This document shows positions 8,114 to 47,776 of a DNA stretch of 64,000 nucleotides, one piece after another. How positions within the stretch are numbered: the stretch's first letter is position 1; every line of letters starts with the position of its first letter. The position numbers and the translations under genes were made by a program. The DNA comes from Myxococcota bacterium (GTDB lineage Bacteria > Myxococcota_A > UBA9042 > PHBI01 > JAWLBL01), in contig JAWLBL010000015.1 of NCBI GenBank assembly GCA_041687695.1, positions 3,627-67,626 on the forward strand, given 5' to 3'. The notes below the pieces were generated by a model. The model saw only the letters and a list, made by a program, of their open reading frames with translations, was not told the DNA's origin and did no database searches.

Positions 8114-8719
8114 GGGCCCCGCTCTGCGTGTCGCCGTCCGTGACCCACGGGGGTCGCTGCCCTCACGAGAGACTCATCCTCGTGGGCCTCGAAAGTAAAC
8201 TCATCCGTGAACGGTAGGACGTGAGCGCCGGCGACTCCTCGACCGTGAACGGCCCGCGCTGTCTCACATGGGGGACGCACCAGGTCCTGGTGGAGTACGG
8301 CGCGGAACGTACGTCGTCACCTTCCGGGGGCTCGCAAGAAGTGCAGATGGCCGACGCGGGACAATCGCGACCGACGACGAGATGCCCGCGCACCATAGGC
8401 GGCCGATGATGGAGCGGGCCGACCGTATCAGCTCTGGTGCCGAAGTCCAGAACCTCTCTGGGAATGGACGTCCAGAGTCCTCGAGCACCGAGGGGCCCCG
8501 GCACCGAGGACGCCCGTCCAGGCCACCGTGTCCGCAGGGACGTTGTCTCGCACAGCCCGTCGGCTGCGCGTGATGGTCGCAGGAGGGGGGTGACTGGGCG
8601 CGTGTAGGGCGTGCGTCGCGCGACGCAAGAGATTGACTCGCCTGAGGCGACACCGTACAACAGCCGACATCGTGGTGATTTGGTCCGCTTGCCGCCACGT
8701 TAAACAAGGAGCTAAAGAG

Positions 8720-9873
8720 ATGGGTGAGATGTCGGTGCATCCCGAGCTGAGGGATGAGGCGTTGGTGCGTCGCGAGGTGGCGCGCGGCTTGGGTGAGCTG
8801 CTGGCGCGGTGGGGCGGCTCGGACGAGGCGCTGGCGCGGCGGTTGGGCTTCGAGGACGTGCCGCGCGGGGCGTTCCTGGTCGGTGCGTGGTCGCGGGGCG
8901 ACGAGGACCCGGACGAGGCGCAGGTCGCGCGGTTGTGCGACGCGGTGGGGGCCGAGGCGGCGCCCTGGGCGGAGGTGGTCCGGCGGCGACGGGCGGCGCG
9001 GCGGGCGCTGGAGGTCCGCTGGGACGAGCTGTCGAAGGCCGACGCGCGGGCGGAGCGCGCCGAATGGGAGAGCTTCTGGGGGTGCGTGCCGGAGTTGGCA
9101 CGCCTGGGGGGCGCGGCGCTGCGGCAGGCTGGGGTGTGGACGCTGCGGGGGCCCTGGCTGCGCGTCCTGGCGCGGTGGACGCATCTGCACCATGTCGCGC
9201 TGGGGCCGGTGGCCGAGGCGTGGGCGCGGGGTGAGCTGGTGGCGCCGTGCTCGCGCTGCCGGGGCGAGCTGTTCGTGACGGCGCTGAGGTGGGGCGCGGT
9301 CGAGGGGCGCTGCGTCTGCGACTCGGGGGTGGTGGTCGCGGGGGCGCACAGGACCTCCGGCGCGGTGGGGGCGGCCCTGCGGGCGTGTCTCGAGCAGACG
9401 GGGGCGCTGGGGGCCGAGCGTCTGGAGGACGCCGGCGTCTGGTGGGAGGCGGCGGCGGCGCTGGGGATGGACGTGCCGCCAGCGCGCATCGAGGACGGCC
9501 GCGGGCGGCTGCTGGGGGTTGGGAGTACGGGGCGCAGCGGCTCCTGCGGCCGGACGGGGCGGCGGTGGTGCTGCGGCGCGGTGAGGCGGTGCCGGGGTGG
9601 GATCGGGCGGGGAGGCTGGGGCGTCGGCCGGTGACGCTGTCGCTGAGCGGCGACGGGCGGAGGCTGGGGCGGGCGTTGACGGGGGCGACGCTGCACCGGG
9701 GGCAGGCGCTGGTGCTGGAGACGGGAGAGGGCGTGTGGTGCGGGTTCCCGGGGCACCTGCGGGACCCGCGGGACCGGGTGCGGGCGCGGTTCGAGCGGCG
9801 GGTGCCGGCGCGGGTGATGGCGTGGTTGGCCGGGGCGGGAGCGGGGGCGAGCGAAGGTGGGCCGGGGGACTGA
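8720..9873 (+). pseudogene. Hypothetical protein (HTH-like N-terminus, CxxC motif), probably frameshifted at a G5 run near 9514-9518
   Basis: AAGGAG RBS and ATG at 8720; the frame becomes R/G/C/W-rich after ...GRGRLLG, while the -1 frame reads GWEYGAQRLLRPDG...PGD* to 9873 with GC3-rich codons. Confidence 0.5.
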
Positions 9874-42264: not shown

Positions 42265-42612
42265 TCACTCGGGCGGCTCGCCGCCATCGACGCACTCGGT
42301 GTCGCACACGGCACCGCCGGCTTCCATCACGCATTGGCCGTCGGACGAGTAGTAGCCGCCCTCGCAGGGGGGCCGCTCGGGGCAACGCTCGATGGGCAGC
42401 AAGTAGGCGCATCCTGCGCAGTAGGCGCCGCAGGTGTCGAAGGCGAGGCTGAAGTCTGGATAGGTGGGTTGGAGCCTGGTGCACCCATAGCGCACGTCGT
42501 CTTCGCTGATCAGCCCGCCGTGGAGGGAGCCGTAGGTCGTGGAGAATCCCGTGAGTGGGCAGCCATGGCAAGGGGGGACTGGGTCAAATCCAGGGTCGTC
42601 GCAAGTCCACAG
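42265..42612 (-). pseudogene. 5'-truncated fragment of a Cys-rich protein gene
   Basis: Frame reads LWTCDDPGFDPVPPCHGCPLTGF...CGAYCAGC...CDTECVDGGEPPE*; no start codon upstream of this stretch before hairpin/REP DNA and a stop at ~42703. Confidence 0.5.
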
Positions 42613-42703
42613 CGGTCGGTTCCGCCGGCGCGCGGCGGCCGTCCAGAGCGCCGGTAGGGCCGGCTCTTTGGACGGCCGCCAAAGGCGTAGTTGGTCGCGA
42701 ACT

Positions 42704-42739
42704 CATAGCGCCGGCATGGCCGGCGCGCTCCACAGCGCC
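42704..42739 (-). repeat. Solo REP element of the same family as the 171-bp array
   Basis: Minus strand TGGAGCGCGCCGGC-CAT-GCCGGCGCTATG; adjacent 12-bp stem GGCGGCCGTCCA/TGGACGGCCGCC (42634-42680). Confidence 0.75.
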
Positions 42740-42830
42740 TGCGGCGCGAGAACGCATCGTGCCAACGCTCGTTCTTGCGATGGCCCTGAGGGCGAGACGG
42801 CCTGGCTCGGTGCGCGCTGGGTCGGCCCTT

Positions 42831-44279
42831 TCAGGAGCGGCGGGCGACGGCGAGCAGATCGAGGCCGGGCCAGGGGAGGACGTCGTCGAGGCGCTCCAGG
42901 GCGGGGGTGAGCAGCTCGGAGGCCTTGAGTTGGAGGCGCGAGAGGGTCTTGCGGCGCAGGAGGTGGGAGTTGGCCCACCAGGCGGGGAGCCAGGCGCGGG
43001 CGAAGTCCTCGAAGGCCAGCGGGGTGAGGCCGGCCTCGGTGAAGAGGCGCTCGAGGTCGGGGCGGGCGAAGCGGACGCGGTTGCGGCGGCCCTGGTCGAG
43101 CGGGCCGTACAGGTCGGGGTTCTGTGGGGCCAGGACGACGAGCTGGCCGCCGGGGCGCAGGGCGCGGGCGGCGTTTTGGAGGGCGACGACCGGGTCGGGC
43201 TGGCGCTCGAGCAGGTTGAGCATCAGGACGGTGTCGAACTGGCCGGCCAGCGGGTCGAAGTCGGCGGGCTCGGAGGGGTCGACGCGGAGGACCTCGACGT
43301 AGGGTTTACCCAGGGCCCAAGAGCGCAGGTAATGCAGGTGGTGGGGGTTGGTCTCGGCGGCGACGTAGCGGTCGCGCGGGATGAGCTGGCTGGAGAGGCT
43401 GGCGACGCCGGCGCCGAGCTCGAGCACGCGGTCGCCCATGAAGGGGCGCAGGCGGTCGGCGACCCAGCTCTGGAAGCGGCGCGCGTGCTGCAGATCCGCC
43501 AGCATGTGGGTGCCGTAGTCGTCGGGCTGGTACAGATCGTCGATGAGGGCGAAGCGGGCCATGGCGGCGAGGGCCAGGGCGCCGTCCCTGGCGCGGATCT
43601 TCTTGCCCTCCTCGAAGGTGCGCGGGAGGTAGCGGATGGGCACCTCGAAGATGCGGGCGCGGCGCTTGGCGAGCTTGCTGGTCAGCTCGATCTCGATGCG
43701 GAAGTCGCGGCTGCGCAGCGGGATCGACTGGAACAGCGGCGTGCGGATGGCCTTGTAGCAGGTCTCGACGTCGGTCAGATCCAGGTCGGTCACCCAGTTG
43801 CACAGCTGGGTGATGGTCTTGTTGATGAGGGTGTGGCGGTACAGCAGCGTCCGGCGGTAGGGCGCGGCGATGTAGCGCGAGCCGTAGACCGCGTCGGCGC
43901 CCTCTTTGACGAAGGGGACCAGCAGCTTGGGGATGTCGGTCGGGTCGTACTCGAGGTCGGCGTCGTGGATGACCGTCACGTCGCCGGTGGCCCGCGCGAG
44001 CGCCGTTCGGATGGCGGCGCCCTTGCCCTGGTTGGTCTCGTGGCGCAGCAGGACCACCCGCGGGTCGGACGCGGCGACCCGCTCCAGGACCTCCCAGCTG
44101 CCGTCGGTCGAGCGGTCGTCGACGACGATGAGCTCGAGCGAGGCGATGAGCTCGTCCTCGAGCGCCAGCACGCGCCGGAGGCTGGCCTCGACGACGTGGC
44201 GCTCGTTGTAGACCGGGGTCAGGACCGACAGCCGCAGGCGCGGTCCCAGGGCGTTGGCAGCAGCGTTCGGGGGCGTCAC
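42831..44279 (-). CDS. GT2 (DPM1-like) glycosyltransferase fused to a class I SAM methyltransferase-like domain
   Basis: PVYNE, VDDRSTDGS, NQGKGAA, HDADLEYDP, DVETCYK; VLELGAG, FDTVLMLNLLE, LRPGG. Confidence 0.92.
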   Translation of the reverse strand: MTPPNAAANALGPRLRLSVLTPVYNERHVVEASLRRVLALEDELIASLELIVVDDRSTDGSWEVLERVAASDPRVVLLRHETNQGKGAAIRTALARATGDVTVIHDADLEYDPTDIPKLLVPFVKEGADAVYGSRYIAAPYRRTLLYRHTLINKTITQLCNWVTDLDLTDVETCYKAIRTPLFQSIPLRSRDFRIEIELTSKLAKRRARIFEVPIRYLPRTFEEGKKIRARDGALALAAMARFALIDDLYQPDDYGTHMLADLQHARRFQSWVADRLRPFMGDRVLELGAGVASLSSQLIPRDRYVAAETNPHHLHYLRSWALGKPYVEVLRVDPSEPADFDPLAGQFDTVLMLNLLERQPDPVVALQNAARALRPGGQLVVLAPQNPDLYGPLDQGRRNRVRFARPDLERLFTEAGLTPLAFEDFARAWLPAWWANSHLLRRKTLSRLQLKASELLTPALERLDDVLPWPGLDLLAVARRS

Positions 44280-44378
44280 GCCGCGGAGTCTAGGGTCGTT
44301 TGCCCCCGCCCGCCACCGGGTTTCGGGGCCGACGCGTTGGTTCCGCGCCGAAGGCGCTCTGGAATCGCACCCGTGAGC

Positions 44379-45566
44379 GCGCCGGCGTGGCCGGCGCGAA
44401 CGAGCCTGCGATGGTTCTGGCGCGCCTCGCGGTCGTTCCGCCGCCGCAGGCGGCTCTGGAGCGCGCAGGCCTTGCCTGCGCTGTGCGATCGCGGCGACTC
44501 CTGTGAACCCGAGCGGTCCATAGCGCCGGCGTGGCCGGCGCGGTCCAGAGCGCCGGCGTGGCCGGCGCGAACGAGCCTGCGATGGTTCTGGCGCGCCTCG
44601 CGGTCGTTCCGCCGCCGCAGGCGGCTTTGGAGCGCGCAGGCCTTGCCTGCGCTGTGCGATCGCGGCGACTCCTCTGAACCCGAGCGGTCCATAGCGCCGG
44701 CGTGGCCGGCGCGGTCCATAGCGCCGGCGTGGCCGGCGCGAACGAGCCTGCGATGGTTCTCGCGCGCCACGCGGTCGTTCCGCCGCCGCAGGCGGCTTTG
44801 GAGCGCGCAGGCCATGCCTGCGCTGTGCGATTGCGGCGACTCCTGTGAACCCGGGCGGTCCATAGCGCCGGCGTGGCCGGCGCGGTCCACAGCGCCGGCG
44901 TGGCCGGCGCGAACGAGCCTGCGATGGTTCTGGCGCGCCTCGCGGTCGTTCCGCCGCCGCAGGCGGCTCTGGAGCGCGCAGGCCTTGCCTGCGCTGTGCG
45001 ATTGTCGCAGCTCGTCTGAATCCGCGCGGTCCATAGCGCCGGCGTGGCCGGCGCGGTCCATAGCGCCGGCGTGGCCGGCGCGAACGAGCCTGCGATGGTT
45101 CTCGCGCGCCACGCGGTCGTTCCGCCGCCGCAGGCGGCTTTGGAGCGCGCAGGCCATGCCTGCGCTGTGCGATTGCGGCGACTCCTGTGAACCCGGGCGG
45201 TCCATAGCGCCGGCGTGGCCGGCGCGGTCCACAGCGCCGGCGTGGCCGGCGCGAACGAGCCTGCGATGGTTCTGGCGCGCCTCGCGGTCGTTCCGCCGCC
45301 GCAGGCGGCTCTGGAGCGCGCAGGCCTTGCCTGCGCTGTGCGATTGTCGCAGCTCGTCTGAATCCGCGCGGTCCATAGCGCCGGCGTGGCCGGCGCGGTC
45401 CATAGCGCCGGCGTGGCCGGCGCGAACGAGCCTGCGATGGTTCTCGCGCGCCACGCGGTCGTTCCGCCGCCGCAGGCGGCTCTGGAGCGCGCAGGCCTTG
45501 CCTGCGCTGTGCGATTGTCGCAGCTCCTCTGGGTCCGCGCGGTCCATAGCGCCGGCGTGGCCGGCG
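44379..45566. repeat. Tandem array of ~7 x 171-bp REP/BIME-like palindromic units
   Basis: GAACGAGCCTGCGATGG recurs at 44398, 44569, 44740, 44911, 45082, 45253, 45424; each unit has two GCGCCGGC-GTG-GCCGGCGC hairpins and one inverted GCGCAGGC-CWT-GCCTGCGC hairpin. Confidence 0.93.
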
Positions 45567-45568
45567 GG

Positions 45569-46780
45569 TCAGTCGCCGCCGCGGGTGCCGTTGAGGGCGA
45601 TGACGCGCAGGGCGACCTCCATCAGATCGCCGTCGCGGTTGATCTTGACCGTGACCTGGTCGCCCGGGCGGAAGCGGTCGAGGGCGTTGTAGAGGTCGTC
45701 GAAGGACTTCACCTGGTACTGGTCGACGCCGACGATGACGTCGCCCAGCACCACGCCGCGGCGGGTCTGCTGCAGGCCCTTGAGGCCCGCGCGGGCGGCG
45801 GGGGTGCCCTCGACCACCTGGGACACGATGACGCCCTCGACGCCGGCGCGGCGCGCGATGGAGTCGTCGACCACCTCGATGCCGATGCCGACGTGCACCG
45901 GCTGGCCGGTCTTGAGGATCTGCGGCACGACGCGCGCGACCGTCTTCCAGGGCACGGCGAAGCCGATGCCGGCGTAGCCGCCGCTGGCCGAGTAGATCAT
46001 CGTGTTCATGCCGATGAGCTGCCCGCGCGAGTCGATGAGCGGCCCGCCCGAGTTGCCCGGGTTGACGGCCGCGTCGGTCTGGATCATGTCGCGGATGGTC
46101 ACGCCGCCCACGCCCATGACCTCTCGCCCGAGCGCCGAGACCACGCCGGTGGTCAGCGTGTGGTCGAGGCCGAACGGGTTGCCGATGGCGATGGCCTTCT
46201 GGCCGACCTCGACCTCGTAGCCGGCGGGCGGGCGGCGGATGGGCGTCAGCTTGTCGGCCGGCGCGTCGATGCGCAGGACGGCGATGTCTTTGCGCGGGTC
46301 GACGCCGACCACCTCGGCCGGCCAGGTGCTGCGGTCGTGGAGCGTGACCGTCAGGCGCGGCGCGCGGCCCTGCGACTGGATGACGTGGAAGTTGGTGACG
46401 ATGTGACCCTGGGCGTCCCAGATGAAGCCAGAGCCGGCGCCGGCGGGGACCTCGGTGGCGCGCATCGAGAAGTGGTCGCGCACGACCTGGGTCTGGGTGA
46501 CGAAGACCGTGGCGGGGGCCGCGGCGCGGAAGACGTCGATGGTGTTGCGCTCGTCGAGCTGGGTGGCGGCGGCCGGCAGCGGGTCGACCAGCGGCGTCTG
46601 GCGGGCGGGCGGCGGGTCGGCCGGCTGGGCGTGGGCCAGCGGGGCCTCGACCGGGATGGGCGCGGTCGTCGGCGGGCTGGAGCCGGGGAGCCAGGTGACG
46701 GCCGTGACGCCGCCGAGGGCGGCGAGGGCGAAGAGGAAGGGCTTGGTCGCGACGCGGAGGCGGGGGGAGGGGGTGCTCAT
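45569..46780 (-). CDS. HtrA/DegP-family serine protease (trypsin-like + PDZ)
   Basis: GAGSGFIWD, TNFHV, DIAVL, IGNPFGLD, IQTDAAVNPGNSGGPL, C-terminal PDZ. Confidence 0.95.
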   Translation of the reverse strand: MSTPSPRLRVATKPFLFALAALGGVTAVTWLPGSSPPTTAPIPVEAPLAHAQPADPPPARQTPLVDPLPAAATQLDERNTIDVFRAAAPATVFVTQTQVVRDHFSMRATEVPAGAGSGFIWDAQGHIVTNFHVIQSQGRAPRLTVTLHDRSTWPAEVVGVDPRKDIAVLRIDAPADKLTPIRRPPAGYEVEVGQKAIAIGNPFGLDHTLTTGVVSALGREVMGVGGVTIRDMIQTDAAVNPGNSGGPLIDSRGQLIGMNTMIYSASGGYAGIGFAVPWKTVARVVPQILKTGQPVHVGIGIEVVDDSIARRAGVEGVIVSQVVEGTPAARAGLKGLQQTRRGVVLGDVIVGVDQYQVKSFDDLYNALDRFRPGDQVTVKINRDGDLMEVALRVIALNGTRGGD

Positions 46781-46914
46781 GCTGCTCCCTGACGTCTTGG
46801 GGTCGAACGCATTCAGCGATGGGCGCCGGTAGACATAGGCGCCGTTCGAACGCGTTCCACCCCTGATCGCGTCCCGCCTGGGCGCGCGCCGCCCCCCGAA
46901 CTTCGGCCGGGGTC

Positions 46915-46943
46915 TTGAACCCCGCGAGATCCGTCGCTAATCT
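46915..46943 (+). promoter_or_regulatory. Sigma70-type promoter driving the putative ncRNA
   Basis: TTGAAC-N17-TAATCT. Confidence 0.65.
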
Positions 46944-46949
46944 GGGCCT

Positions 46950-47269
46950 CGCACTCAGCCGGAGCGCCTAACCAGCGCTCCTTGCACGGCTGGCCCGGTG
47001 GACCGTCGACGAGCGGGCGGCCACGCGGGGGCGGGACTGGGTCTCGCGATGCGCAACACGCTGGCAAAAGGAGGTGATCCCTTGAAGAGTTCGACTTGGG
47101 TGATGTGTGAGGTGGTGGCCTCCTAGGCCAGCCTGCGTTGAGGGACGCCAGCGCGCGTCCACAGACAAGGGTGAGCGCCTGGAGCCCAGGCACCACCGAG
47201 CCCCGAGGTCCCGCCCCGTCACCGGGTGGGCGATTCCGGAATGGGTCGCAGAAGCCTCGGGGTTTTTTT
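46950..47269 (+). ncRNA. Putative ~320-nt structured RNA with internal extended SD and short ORF (Ms1/6S-like candidate)
   Basis: Upstream promoter; stems CAGCCG/CGGCTG, GAGCGC/GCGCTC, GCCCG/CGGGC, GGGGCGGGAC/GTCCCGCCCC, CGCTGGC/GCCAGCG, CCCCGAGG/CCTCGGGG followed by T7. Confidence 0.62.
47082..47126 (+). CDS. Possible 14-aa peptide MKSSTWVMCEVVAS
   Basis: TTG start 7 nt after the GGAGG of AAAAGGAGGTGATCC; TAG at 47124-47126. Confidence 0.4.
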   Translation: MKSSTWVMCEVVAS

Positions 47270-47287
47270 GTGCCCGCCGTCCGGCCC

Positions 47288-47776
47288 TCAGCGGCGGACG
47301 AGCGAGCGAGGGACGGGCGAGGCCTCGTCAACGGGCTGGTCCGAGGGCGCGGTGGGGATCAGCAGCTCGGCGCCGACCGGCGGTCCCGCGACGCAGGTGT
47401 AGCGGACGGTGCGCGAGCCCACCAGGTTGGTCCCCAGGGCGACCGCCTGCGCGCAGGCCAGCTCGCCGAGGCTGTCGTCGATGTCGTCGCACAGGAGCAG
47501 CCCGCCGGCGATGCCGACCGCCGTGAGGCCGAGCGAGATGGCGACGTCGATGGCGCTCGACTCGCTCTCGACGTCGGCGATGCCGTACTGGCACTCCTCT
47601 CCGGACACGCCGTCGAGCTTGACCAGGCCGTACAGCAAGAACCACTGCCGATCGGTGTAGCTCTCGCCACGCGGCACGTCGCTGGGGACTTGGATGGTGG
47701 TCGAGTAACAGCCGGAGGCGGCGGCCATCAGGCAAGCCGCGGCGCCGGCCGCGATGGAGCGGATCGCGGTACGCAT
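47288..47776 (-). CDS. Bor/Iss-like lipoprotein
   Basis: Lipobox ASGC; YSTTI...QWFLLYGLV...EC.YGIADVES...RTVRYTC. Confidence 0.7.
   Translation of the reverse strand: MRTAIRSIAAGAAACLMAAASGCYSTTIQVPSDVPRGESYTDRQWFLLYGLVKLDGVSGEECQYGIADVESESSAIDVAISLGLTAVGIAGGLLLCDDIDDSLGELACAQAVALGTNLVGSRTVRYTCVAGPPVGAELLIPTAPSDQPVDEASPVPRSLVRR

Follow-up and report, generated by a model that had tools for sequence, protein, structure and literature searches.

A long myxobacterial form of the Ms_IGR-5 RNA combines an extended Shine–Dalgarno sequence, a frame-conserved mini-ORF and two predicted pseudoknots

Introduction

The stand-alone RNA tmRNA (SsrA) folds with pseudoknots and carries a short internal frame that ribosomes read, its stop codon lying in a helix. 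Ms_IGR-5 (RF02471; IGR-5, or ncMSMEG15794c, of M. smegmatis) has been on record as an actinobacterial sRNA since 2013. In the words of a preprint, which finds it NAD-capped, it is 'validated but yet uncharacterized' (bioRxiv 10.1101/2021.12.14.472595). For the actinobacterial branch, an sRNA expressed from its own transcription unit is reported in Streptomyces (PMC8079986, PMC8780764), and M. abscessus and M. smegmatis are reported to show ribosome footprints on it (PMC4974804).

Here we analyse an intergenic element in a 64,000-nt stretch of DNA from a Myxococcota bacterium (the window). An initial annotation had described it as a stand-alone structured RNA with an anti-16S sequence and a 14-codon ORF, lying outside Actinobacteria, as the host lineage confirms. 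Judged by its sequence and predicted fold, the element is a long myxobacterial form, and a new variant, within the known family Ms_IGR-5. The core of Shine–Dalgarno (SD) sequence, mini-ORF and pseudoknots, so far listed as actinobacterial, is thus seen in Myxococcota, where it carries an extra structured 5′ domain.

Results

A free-standing sRNA gene

The element forms a stand-alone transcription unit on the forward strand that encodes a structured RNA (Table 1), of which about 270 of 320 nt are conserved non-coding structure. The promoter-like hexamers that had been pointed out upstream are present with their 17-nt spacing, and the pattern TT[GT]NNN-N16–18-TANNNT, starting 149–161 nt upstream of the SD, recurs in 14 of the 15 window-type Myxococcota loci, against 0–3 matches per 54–70 control windows. 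A generic scan for sigma-70 promoters and terminators returned 0 sites, leaving both the promoter-like site and the terminator unflagged; it is uninformative here because the −10 element matches the E. coli consensus poorly and the terminator has a branched form. The neighbouring genes are also as first described: a divergent HtrA-type gene (Trypsin_2 and PDZ) lies upstream, and the sRNA terminator is followed by the 3′ end of a convergent, lipoprotein-like ORF with a lipobox-like AASGC behind an internal Met. No conserved gene neighbour, upstream or downstream, was found across 34 loci scanned with Pfam. Synteny of the element is clade-limited (ilvE/gcvT in some mycobacteria, pdxH/citrate synthase in Streptomyces).

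Two metatranscriptome contigs from two studies, 95–99% alike and from near relatives, correspond to 46985–47164 and 46968–47128. Both fall inside the predicted transcript and not on its flanks, which is a weak hint of expression, given that DNA carry-over is possible and that uncovered flanks carry no evidential weight. Sequencing-run searches X1 and X2 gave no contig, and none of the runs contained half of the sampled words. Taken together, the promoter-like site, the covarying terminator and the divergent and convergent neighbours bear out the earlier proposal: the element is an unannotated free-standing sRNA gene with its own promoter and terminator.

Table 1. Features of the element in window coordinates. 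Pair counts from alignment A4, which was fitted to the model, lean towards the model structure.
Feature	Position	Strand	Basis or remark
Promoter-like site: TTGAAC (46915-46920), 17-nt spacer, TAATCT (46938-46943)	46915..46943	+	sequence reading
Predicted transcript, ~320 nt	46950..47269	+	5′ end inferred from −10 position, 3′ end from U-tract
P1 (46956-61/46987-92, CAGCCG/CGGCTG) and P1a (46962-67/46975-80, GAGCGC/GCGCTC)	46956..46992	+	conserved apical loop CUAACCA (46968-74)
P2 (46994-96/47027-29) around P2a (47003-06/47017-20)	46994..47029	+	RNAalifold consensus
P3 hairpin, conserved loop CUGGGU (47037-42)	47031..47047	+	RNAalifold consensus
SD1 AAAAGGAGGTGATCC, 15 nt, complementary to 16S 3′ tail	47066..47080	+	sequence reading; invariant in relatives
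sORF, 14 codons, TTG start to TAG stop (47124-47126), MKSSTWVMCEVVAS	47082..47126	+	sequence; frame conservation
PKa 5′ strand GGUGAUG, codons 6-8, pairs with 47217-47223	47099..47105	+	compensatory variants
Invariant internal SD-like GAGGUG (47109-14), overlapping PKb 5′ strand GGUGGUG (47111-17)	47109..47117	+	conservation, compensatory variants
Stop-codon hairpin GGCC-UCCUA-GGCC	47117..47129	+	G of UAG is first base of 3′ strand
Variable insert	47130..47176	+	length and sequence differ among relatives
P6 hairpin GCCUGG-AGC-CCAGGC	47177..47191	+	
PKb 3′ strand CACCACC, just 5′ of terminator, pairs with codons 10-12 (47111-17)	47191..47197	+	
Three-way-junction intrinsic terminator	47201..47269	+	covariation
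Terminator outer stem CCCCGAGG...CCTCGGGG	47201-08/47255-62	+	99.6% paired, 7/8 pairs changed on both sides
T1, loop is PKa 3′ strand CGUCACC (47217-23)	47211-16/47224-29	+	92.5% paired, 6/6 pairs changed on both sides
T2	47230-33/47246-49	+	82.3% paired, 4/4 pairs changed on both sides
U-tract T7	47263-69	+	sequence reading

Relation to Ms_IGR-5

Searching 46780–47400 against 4,227 Rfam families with cmscan (E ≤ 10) gave four matches, of which the top and sole relevant one was Ms_IGR-5 (23.1 bits, E = 0.0032, model positions 1–184 in full). The gathering threshold of that family is 45 bits, so the window lies below the cut-off; it is the best RF02471 match in the whole genome (E = 0.0099). 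When the Rfam model was run on 16 non-actinobacterial loci, none reached 45 bits, the best scoring 41.0. In the same cmscan search, Ms1, 6S, tmRNA and Pxr gave no match at the gathering threshold or at E ≤ 10, and ARAGORN found 0 tmRNA genes in the window. The proposed resemblance to Ms1 is therefore not borne out, the nearest family being Ms_IGR-5. The claim to novelty, which a strong match to a family known in this lineage would have removed, still stands, as Rfam does not list the element for this lineage and the only relevant match is sub-threshold and to an actinobacterial family.

A covariance model (R1) built from 14 window-type sequences alone, without actinobacterial ones, gave full-length matches at E < 0.001 to 76 of 94 other pattern-selected loci. 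Because R1 gives actinobacterial Ms_IGR-5 loci about 30–67 bits, whereas two false-pattern controls with nothing but the SD/GUGAGGUGG pattern reach 9.4 and 11.3 bits, and because the RF02471 and R1 models recognise each other's loci, the window element and Ms_IGR-5 are, at the level of sequence models, one cross-phylum superfamily. R1 detects homologues, which the initial annotation had asked for, as single copies in 36 of 151 Myxococcota genomes and 18 of 107 genomes of the class. Within the same order the element was not found in 10 of 18 genomes; its presence in order and phylum is patchy, so it is either dispensable or diverged beyond detection. The same core turns up in Acidobacteriota, as well as in one or a few records each labelled Rokubacteria, Planctomycetota, Thermodesulfobacteriota and Zixibacteria, and the scan of genome contigs for the element yielded at least 120 matches. 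This places it among the more widely distributed bacterial sRNAs left unannotated outside Actinobacteria by the Rfam threshold. Three BLAST matches of 36–47 nt were also recorded (G014, G003 and G025).

Common to Ms_IGR-5 and the window element are an extended SD and a mini-ORF that contains the invariant GUGAGGUGG and ends, within a hairpin, at a stop three codons downstream of GAG-GUG. In both, a C-rich CACC motif immediately precedes the terminator, whose GC-rich hairpin has another hairpin inside it; both are free-standing and single copy. The window element differs in its host, which is a member of Myxococcota and not of Actinobacteria (loci of its phylum set are identical to records labelled Myxococcota), in its terminator, which is a three-way junction, and in an extra structured 5′ domain of about 115 nt (P1–P3), whereas the Rfam model starts 13 nt before the SD.

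The frame of the mini-ORF is kept, its peptide is not

The sequence complementary to the 3′ tail of 16S rRNA is present as initially claimed. The perfect SD of the core spans 13–15 nt, with the start codon 7 nt after GGAGG, and the 7.97-Mb genome has a single copy of the 12-mer AAGGAGGTGATC. In a genome of the same order, the 3′ end of the SSU rRNA contains the 13-mer complementary to SD1, the own assembly being without SSU rRNA; within the own genome this 13-mer is seen solely as the antisense of the sRNA element. The design of the RNA supports the suggestion that it may engage 30S subunits or ribosomes.

The predicted 14-codon ORF was likewise found, with coordinates one base earlier than a naive count would give. 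At offset 12–24, 131 of the 134 distinct cores have a start codon in frame, compared with 7 and 19 for the two alternative frames, and a stop follows the GAG triplet by five codons in 130 of the 134 (TAG 99, TGA 23, TAA 8); the pattern by which most of these loci were chosen specifies the SD and GUGAGGUGG, so the invariance of those bases is partly by construction. The length varies from 11 to 18 codons and changes by whole codons; L174, a relative found by the covariance model, lacks a stop at the usual position. The last sense codon is always found 6 nt beyond the internal GAGGUG.

The peptide behaves differently from the frame. Its N-terminus varies freely among relatives, and although a C-terminal x-E-V-[A/V]-x-x motif recurs, E-V are the only invariant residues and coincide with the invariant RNA motif. 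The codon ahead of GAG is NGU, in which the first base is free, and so encodes C, R, G or S; mean entropy is 0.86, 0.68 and 0.67 for the first, second and third codon positions, with no third-position excess of variation. By these comparisons, the frame, start and stop are conserved and the amino-acid sequence is not.

Two conserved long-range helices connect the ORF to the 3′ end

The full RNA has a better fold than any of 100 shuffled sequences (z = −2.97). The single-sequence minimum-free-energy fold was rejected as a structure model, as it breaks the terminator and relies on non-conserved pairs. In the 5′ domain, the stems CAGCCG/CGGCTG around GAGCGC/GCGCTC noted at the outset are present and covary (both-side changes in 5 of 6 pairs of P1 and 5 of 5 of P1a), and the apical loop of P1a has, as judged by eye, the consensus YUAAC(A)CC. 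P2 and P2a are 91% and 83% paired, all 7 pairs being changed on both sides, and P3 is 89.8% paired (5 of 6 pairs). Across the whole 5′ domain, 23 of 25 pairs have changed on both sides, which was matched by 0 of 500 shuffles.

Two helices (PKa and PKb) pair codons of the ORF with strands near the 3′ end. For PKa, complementarity to its own partner beats 5,000 of 5,000 permutations, and compensatory variants include GGUGA:UCACC, GGCGA:UCGCC, GAUGA:UCAUC, CUACGGCG:CGCCGUAG, GACGGUGA:UCACCGUC and CGGCUG:YGGCCG. PKb is paired in 14 of 14 sequences at five of six positions and in 13 of 14 at the sixth (98.5% in the wider alignment), with the variants GGUGAUG:CAUCACC, GGUGAUG:CAUUGCC and GGUGUUA:UAACACC. 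These variants are comparative data usable for the design of compensatory mutants. The stop-codon hairpin varies as GGCC/GGCC, GACC/GGUC and alike, with 63.9% of cells paired over all 34 rows.

In the 3′ domain, the outer stem and T-tract of the terminator are present as claimed, and the terminator covaries. The P6 hairpin is 70% paired, with 5 of 6 pairs changed on both sides, and competes with a possible third contact (PKc) between the P3 loop and GCCCAG (47184–89). PKc has local compensatory examples (L138 versus L139–141, and L147) and fared weakly in permutation tests, in which its longest stretch was reached by 109 and its energy by 1,190 of 5,000 permutations.

The covariation that had been called for is thus seen in the terminator, the 5′ domain, PKa and PKb. 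The long-range pairings originally proposed fared less well. The helix 47028–37/47208–17 is perfect in the window (10 of 10 pairs) but is not conserved, with 56% of cells paired among 14 relatives, and neither CGCTGGC/GCCAGCG (27%) nor GCCCG/CGGGC (60%) holds up as a conserved pairing in the same relatives. On comparative evidence, the conserved long-range contacts are PKa and PKb, and not those pairings.

Discussion

A ribosome-operated switch as the preferred model

A kept frame, an unkept peptide, an ORF held in two covarying helices and an internal SD near the stop lead to a testable hypothesis in which an RNA switch has the ribosome as its effector. We think it somewhat probable that ribosomes, by binding and translating the RNA, toggle its fold and that the peptide is not the effector. 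The extended SD would dock the 30S subunit, in an RNA apparently built to capture the ribosome. PKa would start some 17 nt downstream of the start codon, at the boundary of an initiating ribosome, and PKb lies further into the ORF; elongation would therefore have to open both knots. The internal GAGGUG could then, at the stop codon, re-pair with the 16S tail in an initiation-like register. Binding and translation, rather than the peptide, might in this way switch the RNA from a closed, knotted state to an open one, with RNA stability, exposure of the C-rich strands or of the 5′ domain, or ribosome occupancy as candidate outputs.

A broader proposal, which we offer only tentatively, is that the superfamily is a riboregulator with the ribosome itself as 'ligand'. 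The extended SD would capture the 30S subunit, the ribosome would act as helicase for the two pseudoknots, GAGGUG would hold it at the stop, and the RNA would signal how much free-ribosome capacity there is, or buffer it, in at least Actinomycetota, Acidobacteriota and Myxococcota. The myxobacterial P1–P3 domain, with its conserved loops, would be an added output or input module.

A fully knotted ORF is just as compatible with an RNA that normally escapes translation. Accordingly, it might dock or sponge 30S subunits or the 16S 3′ tail, with the extended SD and GAGGUG binding the anti-SD and the knotted ORF never read through, so that 30S subunits are titrated or protected, for example in stationary phase. 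The 13–15 nt of complementarity to the 16S tail, the uniqueness of the 12-mer, the almost wholly base-paired ORF and the invariant second SD-like motif all fit such a sponge. We nevertheless consider it unlikely, because the conserved start and stop, the swaps among stop codons and the whole-codon length changes are hard to explain without translation. The footprints reported for the actinobacterial branch (PMC4974804) also speak against it, although footprints alone do not prove elongation.

If the RNA is translated, the 14-residue peptide might be the product of an ordinary small-protein gene, with RNA structure tuning its expression or stability. A perfect SD at optimal spacing, conserved start and stop codons and the recurring C-terminal motif are what such a gene would have. 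Against this, the two invariant residues coincide with an invariant RNA motif and follow a residue that varies; the N-terminus and the length are free, third positions show no excess of variation, the variable codons change in step with RNA partners outside the ORF, and most of the transcript is conserved non-coding structure. We regard this reading as distinctly improbable and retain the ribosome-operated switch as the preferred model.

An RNA polymerase-binding RNA of the Ms1 or 6S kind, the lead of the initial annotation, would suit a highly structured, stand-alone gene product of about 300 nt, yet Rfam gives no match to Ms1, 6S or a related family at E ≤ 10, the conserved core is the SD–ORF module common to Ms_IGR-5, no tool reproduced the proposed motif likeness and nothing in the analysis points to polymerase binding, so we give this idea very little credence. 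A cis-acting leader or attenuator, or a 3′ UTR-derived fragment of a neighbouring gene, is scarcely tenable: the short ORF and terminator do resemble leader-peptide attenuators, but the next gene is convergent rather than on the same strand, with its 3′ end following the terminator, no neighbour is conserved across the 34 loci and the element has its own conserved promoter-like site.

Comparison with known systems

Dual-function and trans-acting leader-peptide sRNAs (SgrS/SgrT; rnTrpL/peTrpL of Sinorhizobium) likewise place a small ORF and then a terminator in an sRNA-sized transcript. In the window element, by contrast, the ORF is part of two long-range helices, and entropy and codon variation among relatives show no selection of the peptide at the amino-acid level.

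The likeness to Ms1 and 6S is one of size, structure and stand-alone organisation. The core of the window element is a translation-initiation module and not an open-promoter mimic, with no sequence or structure match to either RNA in Rfam, and its covariation-supported fold is multi-domain with pseudoknots, unlike the long hairpin with a central bubble of 6S.

Programmed frameshift and pause sites of the prfB type carry an internal SD-like sequence at a fixed short distance from the stop. The window element shares an SD-like hexamer within its ORF at such a fixed distance, but the 6 nt to the P-site codon correspond to initiation geometry and not to the short spacing that drives +1 shifts, and no shifted frame with a product is evident.

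Like tmRNA, the window element is pseudoknotted, with a short internal frame and a stop codon in a helix. It is without the tRNA-like domain of tmRNA, on the evidence of ARAGORN and Rfam, and has instead a canonical SD and start codon, by which ribosomes would enter through initiation and not through trans-translation.

A small RNA gene in its own right

The candidate small RNA (sRNA) gene at 46950–47269 (+) lies between a divergent upstream gene for an HtrA-type protease (Trypsin_2 and PDZ) and a convergent downstream gene whose product contains a lipobox-like AASGC. The initial annotation had proposed an Ms1-like structured RNA with an anti-16S sequence (SD1) and a 14-codon short ORF (sORF), and direct reading of the sequence confirmed that every sequence element it named is present. 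The 319-nt RNA folds at −163.8 kcal/mol, compared with −147.4 ± 5.5 in shuffles (z = −2.97; none of 100 as stable), and the 7.97-Mb assembly has a single copy of the 12-mer AAGGAGGTGATC. In a genome of the same order, a 13-mer complementary to the SD lies at the extreme 3′ end of the SSU rRNA; because a search of the organism's own assembly found no SSU rRNA, complementarity of SD1 to its own 16S is presumptive. Exact copies of the 16S 3′-end 13-mer are also present at two loci, L186 (G001:C37) and L189 (G010:C23), with no rRNA match at Rfam gathering thresholds; these sites may lie antisense to other strong SDs, or may be rRNA ends that were not assembled.

In 14 of 15 Myxococcota loci of the window type, a promoter-like TT[GT]NNN-N16–18-TANNNT begins 149–161 nt 5′ of the SD (control windows, 0–3 matches per 54–70). 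Across 34 loci the flanking genes vary by lineage (Usp, ATP-grasp, DsbA, DEAD helicase, exonuclease, MsrA/B, amidohydrolase and others). Two metatranscriptome contigs, 95–99% alike and each from a different study, span 46985–47164 and 46968–47128, and both are confined to the predicted RNA with nothing beyond its bounds; two further sequencing runs gave no contig over the locus. These contigs are a weak hint of transcription, short of proof. Taken together, the element is a gene in its own right, and 46950–47269 is a genuine sRNA gene.

Nearby, a tandem repeat (44379–45570; 171 bp × 7.0 copies, 94% matches) falls within long ORFs of both strands and stops where the HtrA-type gene ends (45569); the overlapping ORF 42555–45692 (+; 1,045 aa) has no Pfam match.

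Features of the sRNA gene and conservation of its helices
Feature	Position	Strand	Sequence or partner	Cells paired (CM alignment, 34 sequences)	Basis
Promoter-like element	46915–46943	+	TTGAAC-N17-TAATCT		Read in sequence
Nested 5′ stems	Within element, 5′ part	+			Read in sequence
SD1	47066–47080	+	AAAAGGAGGTGATCC		Read in sequence
sORF, 14 codons	47082–47126	+	TTG start, TAG stop; MKSSTWVMCEVVAS		Read in sequence
3′ end	End at 47269	+	CCCCGAGG...CCTCGGGG then T7		Read in sequence
Terminator stem				99.6%	
T1 (terminator-junction hairpin)				92.5%	
T2 (terminator-junction hairpin)				82.3%	
P6 (hairpin 5′ of terminator)				70.1%	
Stop-codon hairpin				63.9%	
PKa (long-range helix)	47099–47105 (codons 6–8)		T1 loop (47217–47223)		Permutation test, two-sided changes
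PKb (long-range helix)	47111–47117		GGUGGUG : CACCACC (47191–47197)	98.5%	Covariation

Relationship to Ms_IGR-5 and distribution

At gathering thresholds, Rfam gave no annotation at the element. Its sole match in the whole window was a SAM-II riboswitch aptamer (SAM_alpha, RF00521) at 8662–8736 (+; 54.9 bits, cut-off 36), of a family named for Alphaproteobacteria in a genome inferred to be Myxococcota. At E ≤ 10 over 46780–47400 there were four matches, of which the single meaningful one was RF02471, the actinobacterial sRNA Ms_IGR-5 (23.1 bits, cut-off 45; E = 0.0032), spanning the full model (1–184) at 47058–47271. As the same search matched no Ms1, 6S, tmRNA or Pxr family and ARAGORN found no tmRNA, the suggested Ms1 resemblance is unsupported.

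BLAST against 41 relatives matched nine, the window's own genome among them. Five (G010, G029, G011, G001 and G007) have in common the SD, a GTG start, a 14–15-codon ORF ending GEVV(T/A)S-stop, the hairpin, CACCACCG and the branched terminator. An exact search for the SD combined with GUGAGGUGG matched at least 120 stretches in species-representative genomes; among the matches listed, assigned by record title and with counts that are not proportions, 86 were from Actinomycetota, 24 from Acidobacteriota and eight from others (Myxococcota, a Lujinxingiaceae MAG, two Rokubacteria, Planctomycetota, Thermodesulfobacteriota, Zixibacteria and one MAG labelled Heliobacteriaceae), and two were false positives. 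Within the window's own phylum the pattern occurred in 30 of 401 genomes, and a reversed control in none; a pair of these loci match named Myxococcota records, and the phylum is assigned on that basis.

A covariance model with 195 positions and 34 pairs, R1, was constructed exclusively from 14 window-type sequences, 10 of them from Myxococcota and 4 from other phyla. R1 recovered, at full length, all 34 true loci of 35 sources, and 76 of 94 further pattern-selected loci (full-length, E < 0.001). Actinobacterial loci scored about 30–67 bits and two chance-pattern controls only 9.4 and 11.3, so the similarity reaches well beyond the SD and GUGAGGUGG. In the reverse direction, only Mycobacterium (175.8), Micromonospora (98.5) and Streptomyces (85.2) passed the RF02471 threshold, and 7 of 16 non-actinobacterial loci tested gave 25–41 bits (E < 0.1). 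The window type and Ms_IGR-5 belong to one superfamily. Genomes in which R1 found a copy had exactly one; they numbered 18 of 107 for the class (8 of 18 for the order) and 36 of 151 for the phylum. Some families carried R1 matches often (f24, 11 of 13), and in others the model found none (f10, 0 of 13). At one Nocardioides eburneus locus (L018, − strand), adjacent sub-threshold RF02471 matches (1196–1295 and 1436–1554; 29.7 and 41.9 bits) could represent a split sRNA copy or a tandem duplication.

A conserved pseudoknotted fold

In the covariance-model (CM) alignment of 34 sequences, which is fitted to the model being tested, 87.9% of cells were paired (shuffles, 70.7%; slid controls, 36–52%), with both-sided changes in 26 of 34 pairs, a number reached by none of 500 shuffles. 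In a plain MAFFT alignment of 15 sequences, 81.4% of cells in the 5′ domain were paired (shuffles, 68.4%), with both-sided changes in 23 of 25 pairs (0 of 500 shuffles).

PKa, which is not part of R1, was tested by matching the 12 nt 5′ of GUGAGGUGG to nt 7–36 after CCACCG in the same RNA or in permuted partners. Own partners beat 5,000 of 5,000 permutations (longest stretch, 6.53 versus 5.40 ± 0.19; energy, −11.37 versus −9.15 ± 0.39), in a type of test that relatedness of sequences inflates. At least six different complementary pairs occur, with explicit changes on both sides. Because PKa crosses the terminator stem, the fold is pseudoknotted. PKb shows variation on one strand among the pattern-selected loci and on both strands in CM-found relatives (GGUGAUG:CAUCACC, GGUGAUG:CAUUGCC and GGUGUUA:UAACACC).

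The long-range pairs drawn in the initial annotation are not conserved among relatives. In the window, 47028–47037 is a perfect 10-bp complement of 47208–47217, joining the 5′ strand of the 5′-domain helix P3 to that of T1, and its equivalent in one relative (G314) has 11 bp including G–U pairs. This pairing is incompatible with both conserved hairpins, P3 and T1; it may reflect an alternative fold particular to the lineage, or a coincidence in GC-rich sequence. Separately, the apical loop of P1a, within the 5′-domain helix P1 (46968–46974; homologous loops in L134–L181), keeps YUAAC(A)CC throughout the Myxococcota subgroups. Its sequence in certain lineages (for example, ..ACACCG..) is similar to the PKb 3′ strand; no partner for this loop was identified.

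A conserved reading frame that points to the ribosome

Among 134 distinct cores, in most of which the SD and GUGAGGUGG are fixed by the search pattern itself, 131 have an ATG, GTG or TTG in frame with GAG-GUG at offset 12–24 from the SD, compared with 7 and 19 in the other two frames. The fifth codon after GAG is a stop in 130 (TAG 99, TGA 23, TAA 8); the remaining four are three false positives and one ORF longer by one codon. In one CM-derived relative (L174) the stop comes four codons further 3′ than usual, and ORF lengths range from 11 to 18 codons. N-terminal residues vary freely, and the codon preceding GAG is NGU, with an unconstrained first position, and encodes C, R, G or S. Across the last ten codons, positions 1, 2 and 3 have mean column entropies of 0.86, 0.68 and 0.67; thus the third position shows no excess variation. 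The predicted reading frame is conserved, and the putative peptide is not. In high-GC bacteria most stops are usually UGA; the dominance of UAG here (99 of 130) may reflect the structural constraint of its CUAG hairpin context, or a link to RF1.

The start codon lies 7 nt downstream of GGAGG in SD1, and PKa begins 17 nt past its first base. In ribosome footprints, this is about where mRNA exits an initiating ribosome, which makes docking compatible with the fold: a 30S subunit could bind the folded RNA, and elongation would have to melt PKa and then PKb. The invariant GAGGUG (47109–47114) is a perfect complement of the anti-SD core. With the stop at a constant three codons after GAG-GUG, the hexamer sits 6 nt 5′ of the last sense codon; the equivalent SD1 hexamer lies 5 nt 5′ of the start codon. 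With such spacings, a terminating ribosome could re-form an initiation-like SD duplex. The covarying parts (PKa and the 3′ half of PKb) would be constrained by partners inside the RNA, and for the never-varying parts (SD1 and GAGGUG) the best explanation would be the 16S tail, a partner outside the RNA that is itself invariant. From this pattern we infer an RNA whose state would be set by ribosome binding and translation, and its predicted design points strongly at the ribosome.

Comparison with known Ms_IGR-5 RNAs

Ms_IGR-5 has been described as an sRNA validated by RNA-seq in S. lividans (PMC8079986), as an sRNA transcription unit in S. avermitilis (PMC8780764) and as ribosome-protected in M. 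abscessus and M. smegmatis (PMC4974804). A cold-stress study lists IGR-5 as ncMSMEG15794c (PMC10454040), and another places it between MSMEG_5794 and MSMEG_5795, NAD-capped (+1A) and 'validated but yet uncharacterized' (bioRxiv 10.1101/2021.12.14.472595). The passages on Ms_IGR-5 in these papers make no mention of non-actinobacterial members, a mini-ORF or pseudoknots, and a broader keyword search of the literature returned nothing on this RNA.

The short form, comprising the actinobacterial and acidobacterial copies, begins about 10–15 nt 5′ of the SD and is about 185 nt long, whereas the window type has an extra structured 5′ domain of ~115 nt and a three-way-junction terminator. This long form also occurs in records from Rokubacteria (a 420-kb contig), Planctomycetota and Thermodesulfobacteriota. 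The element is not Ms1-like; it represents a new, long form of Ms_IGR-5-type RNA in Myxococcota.
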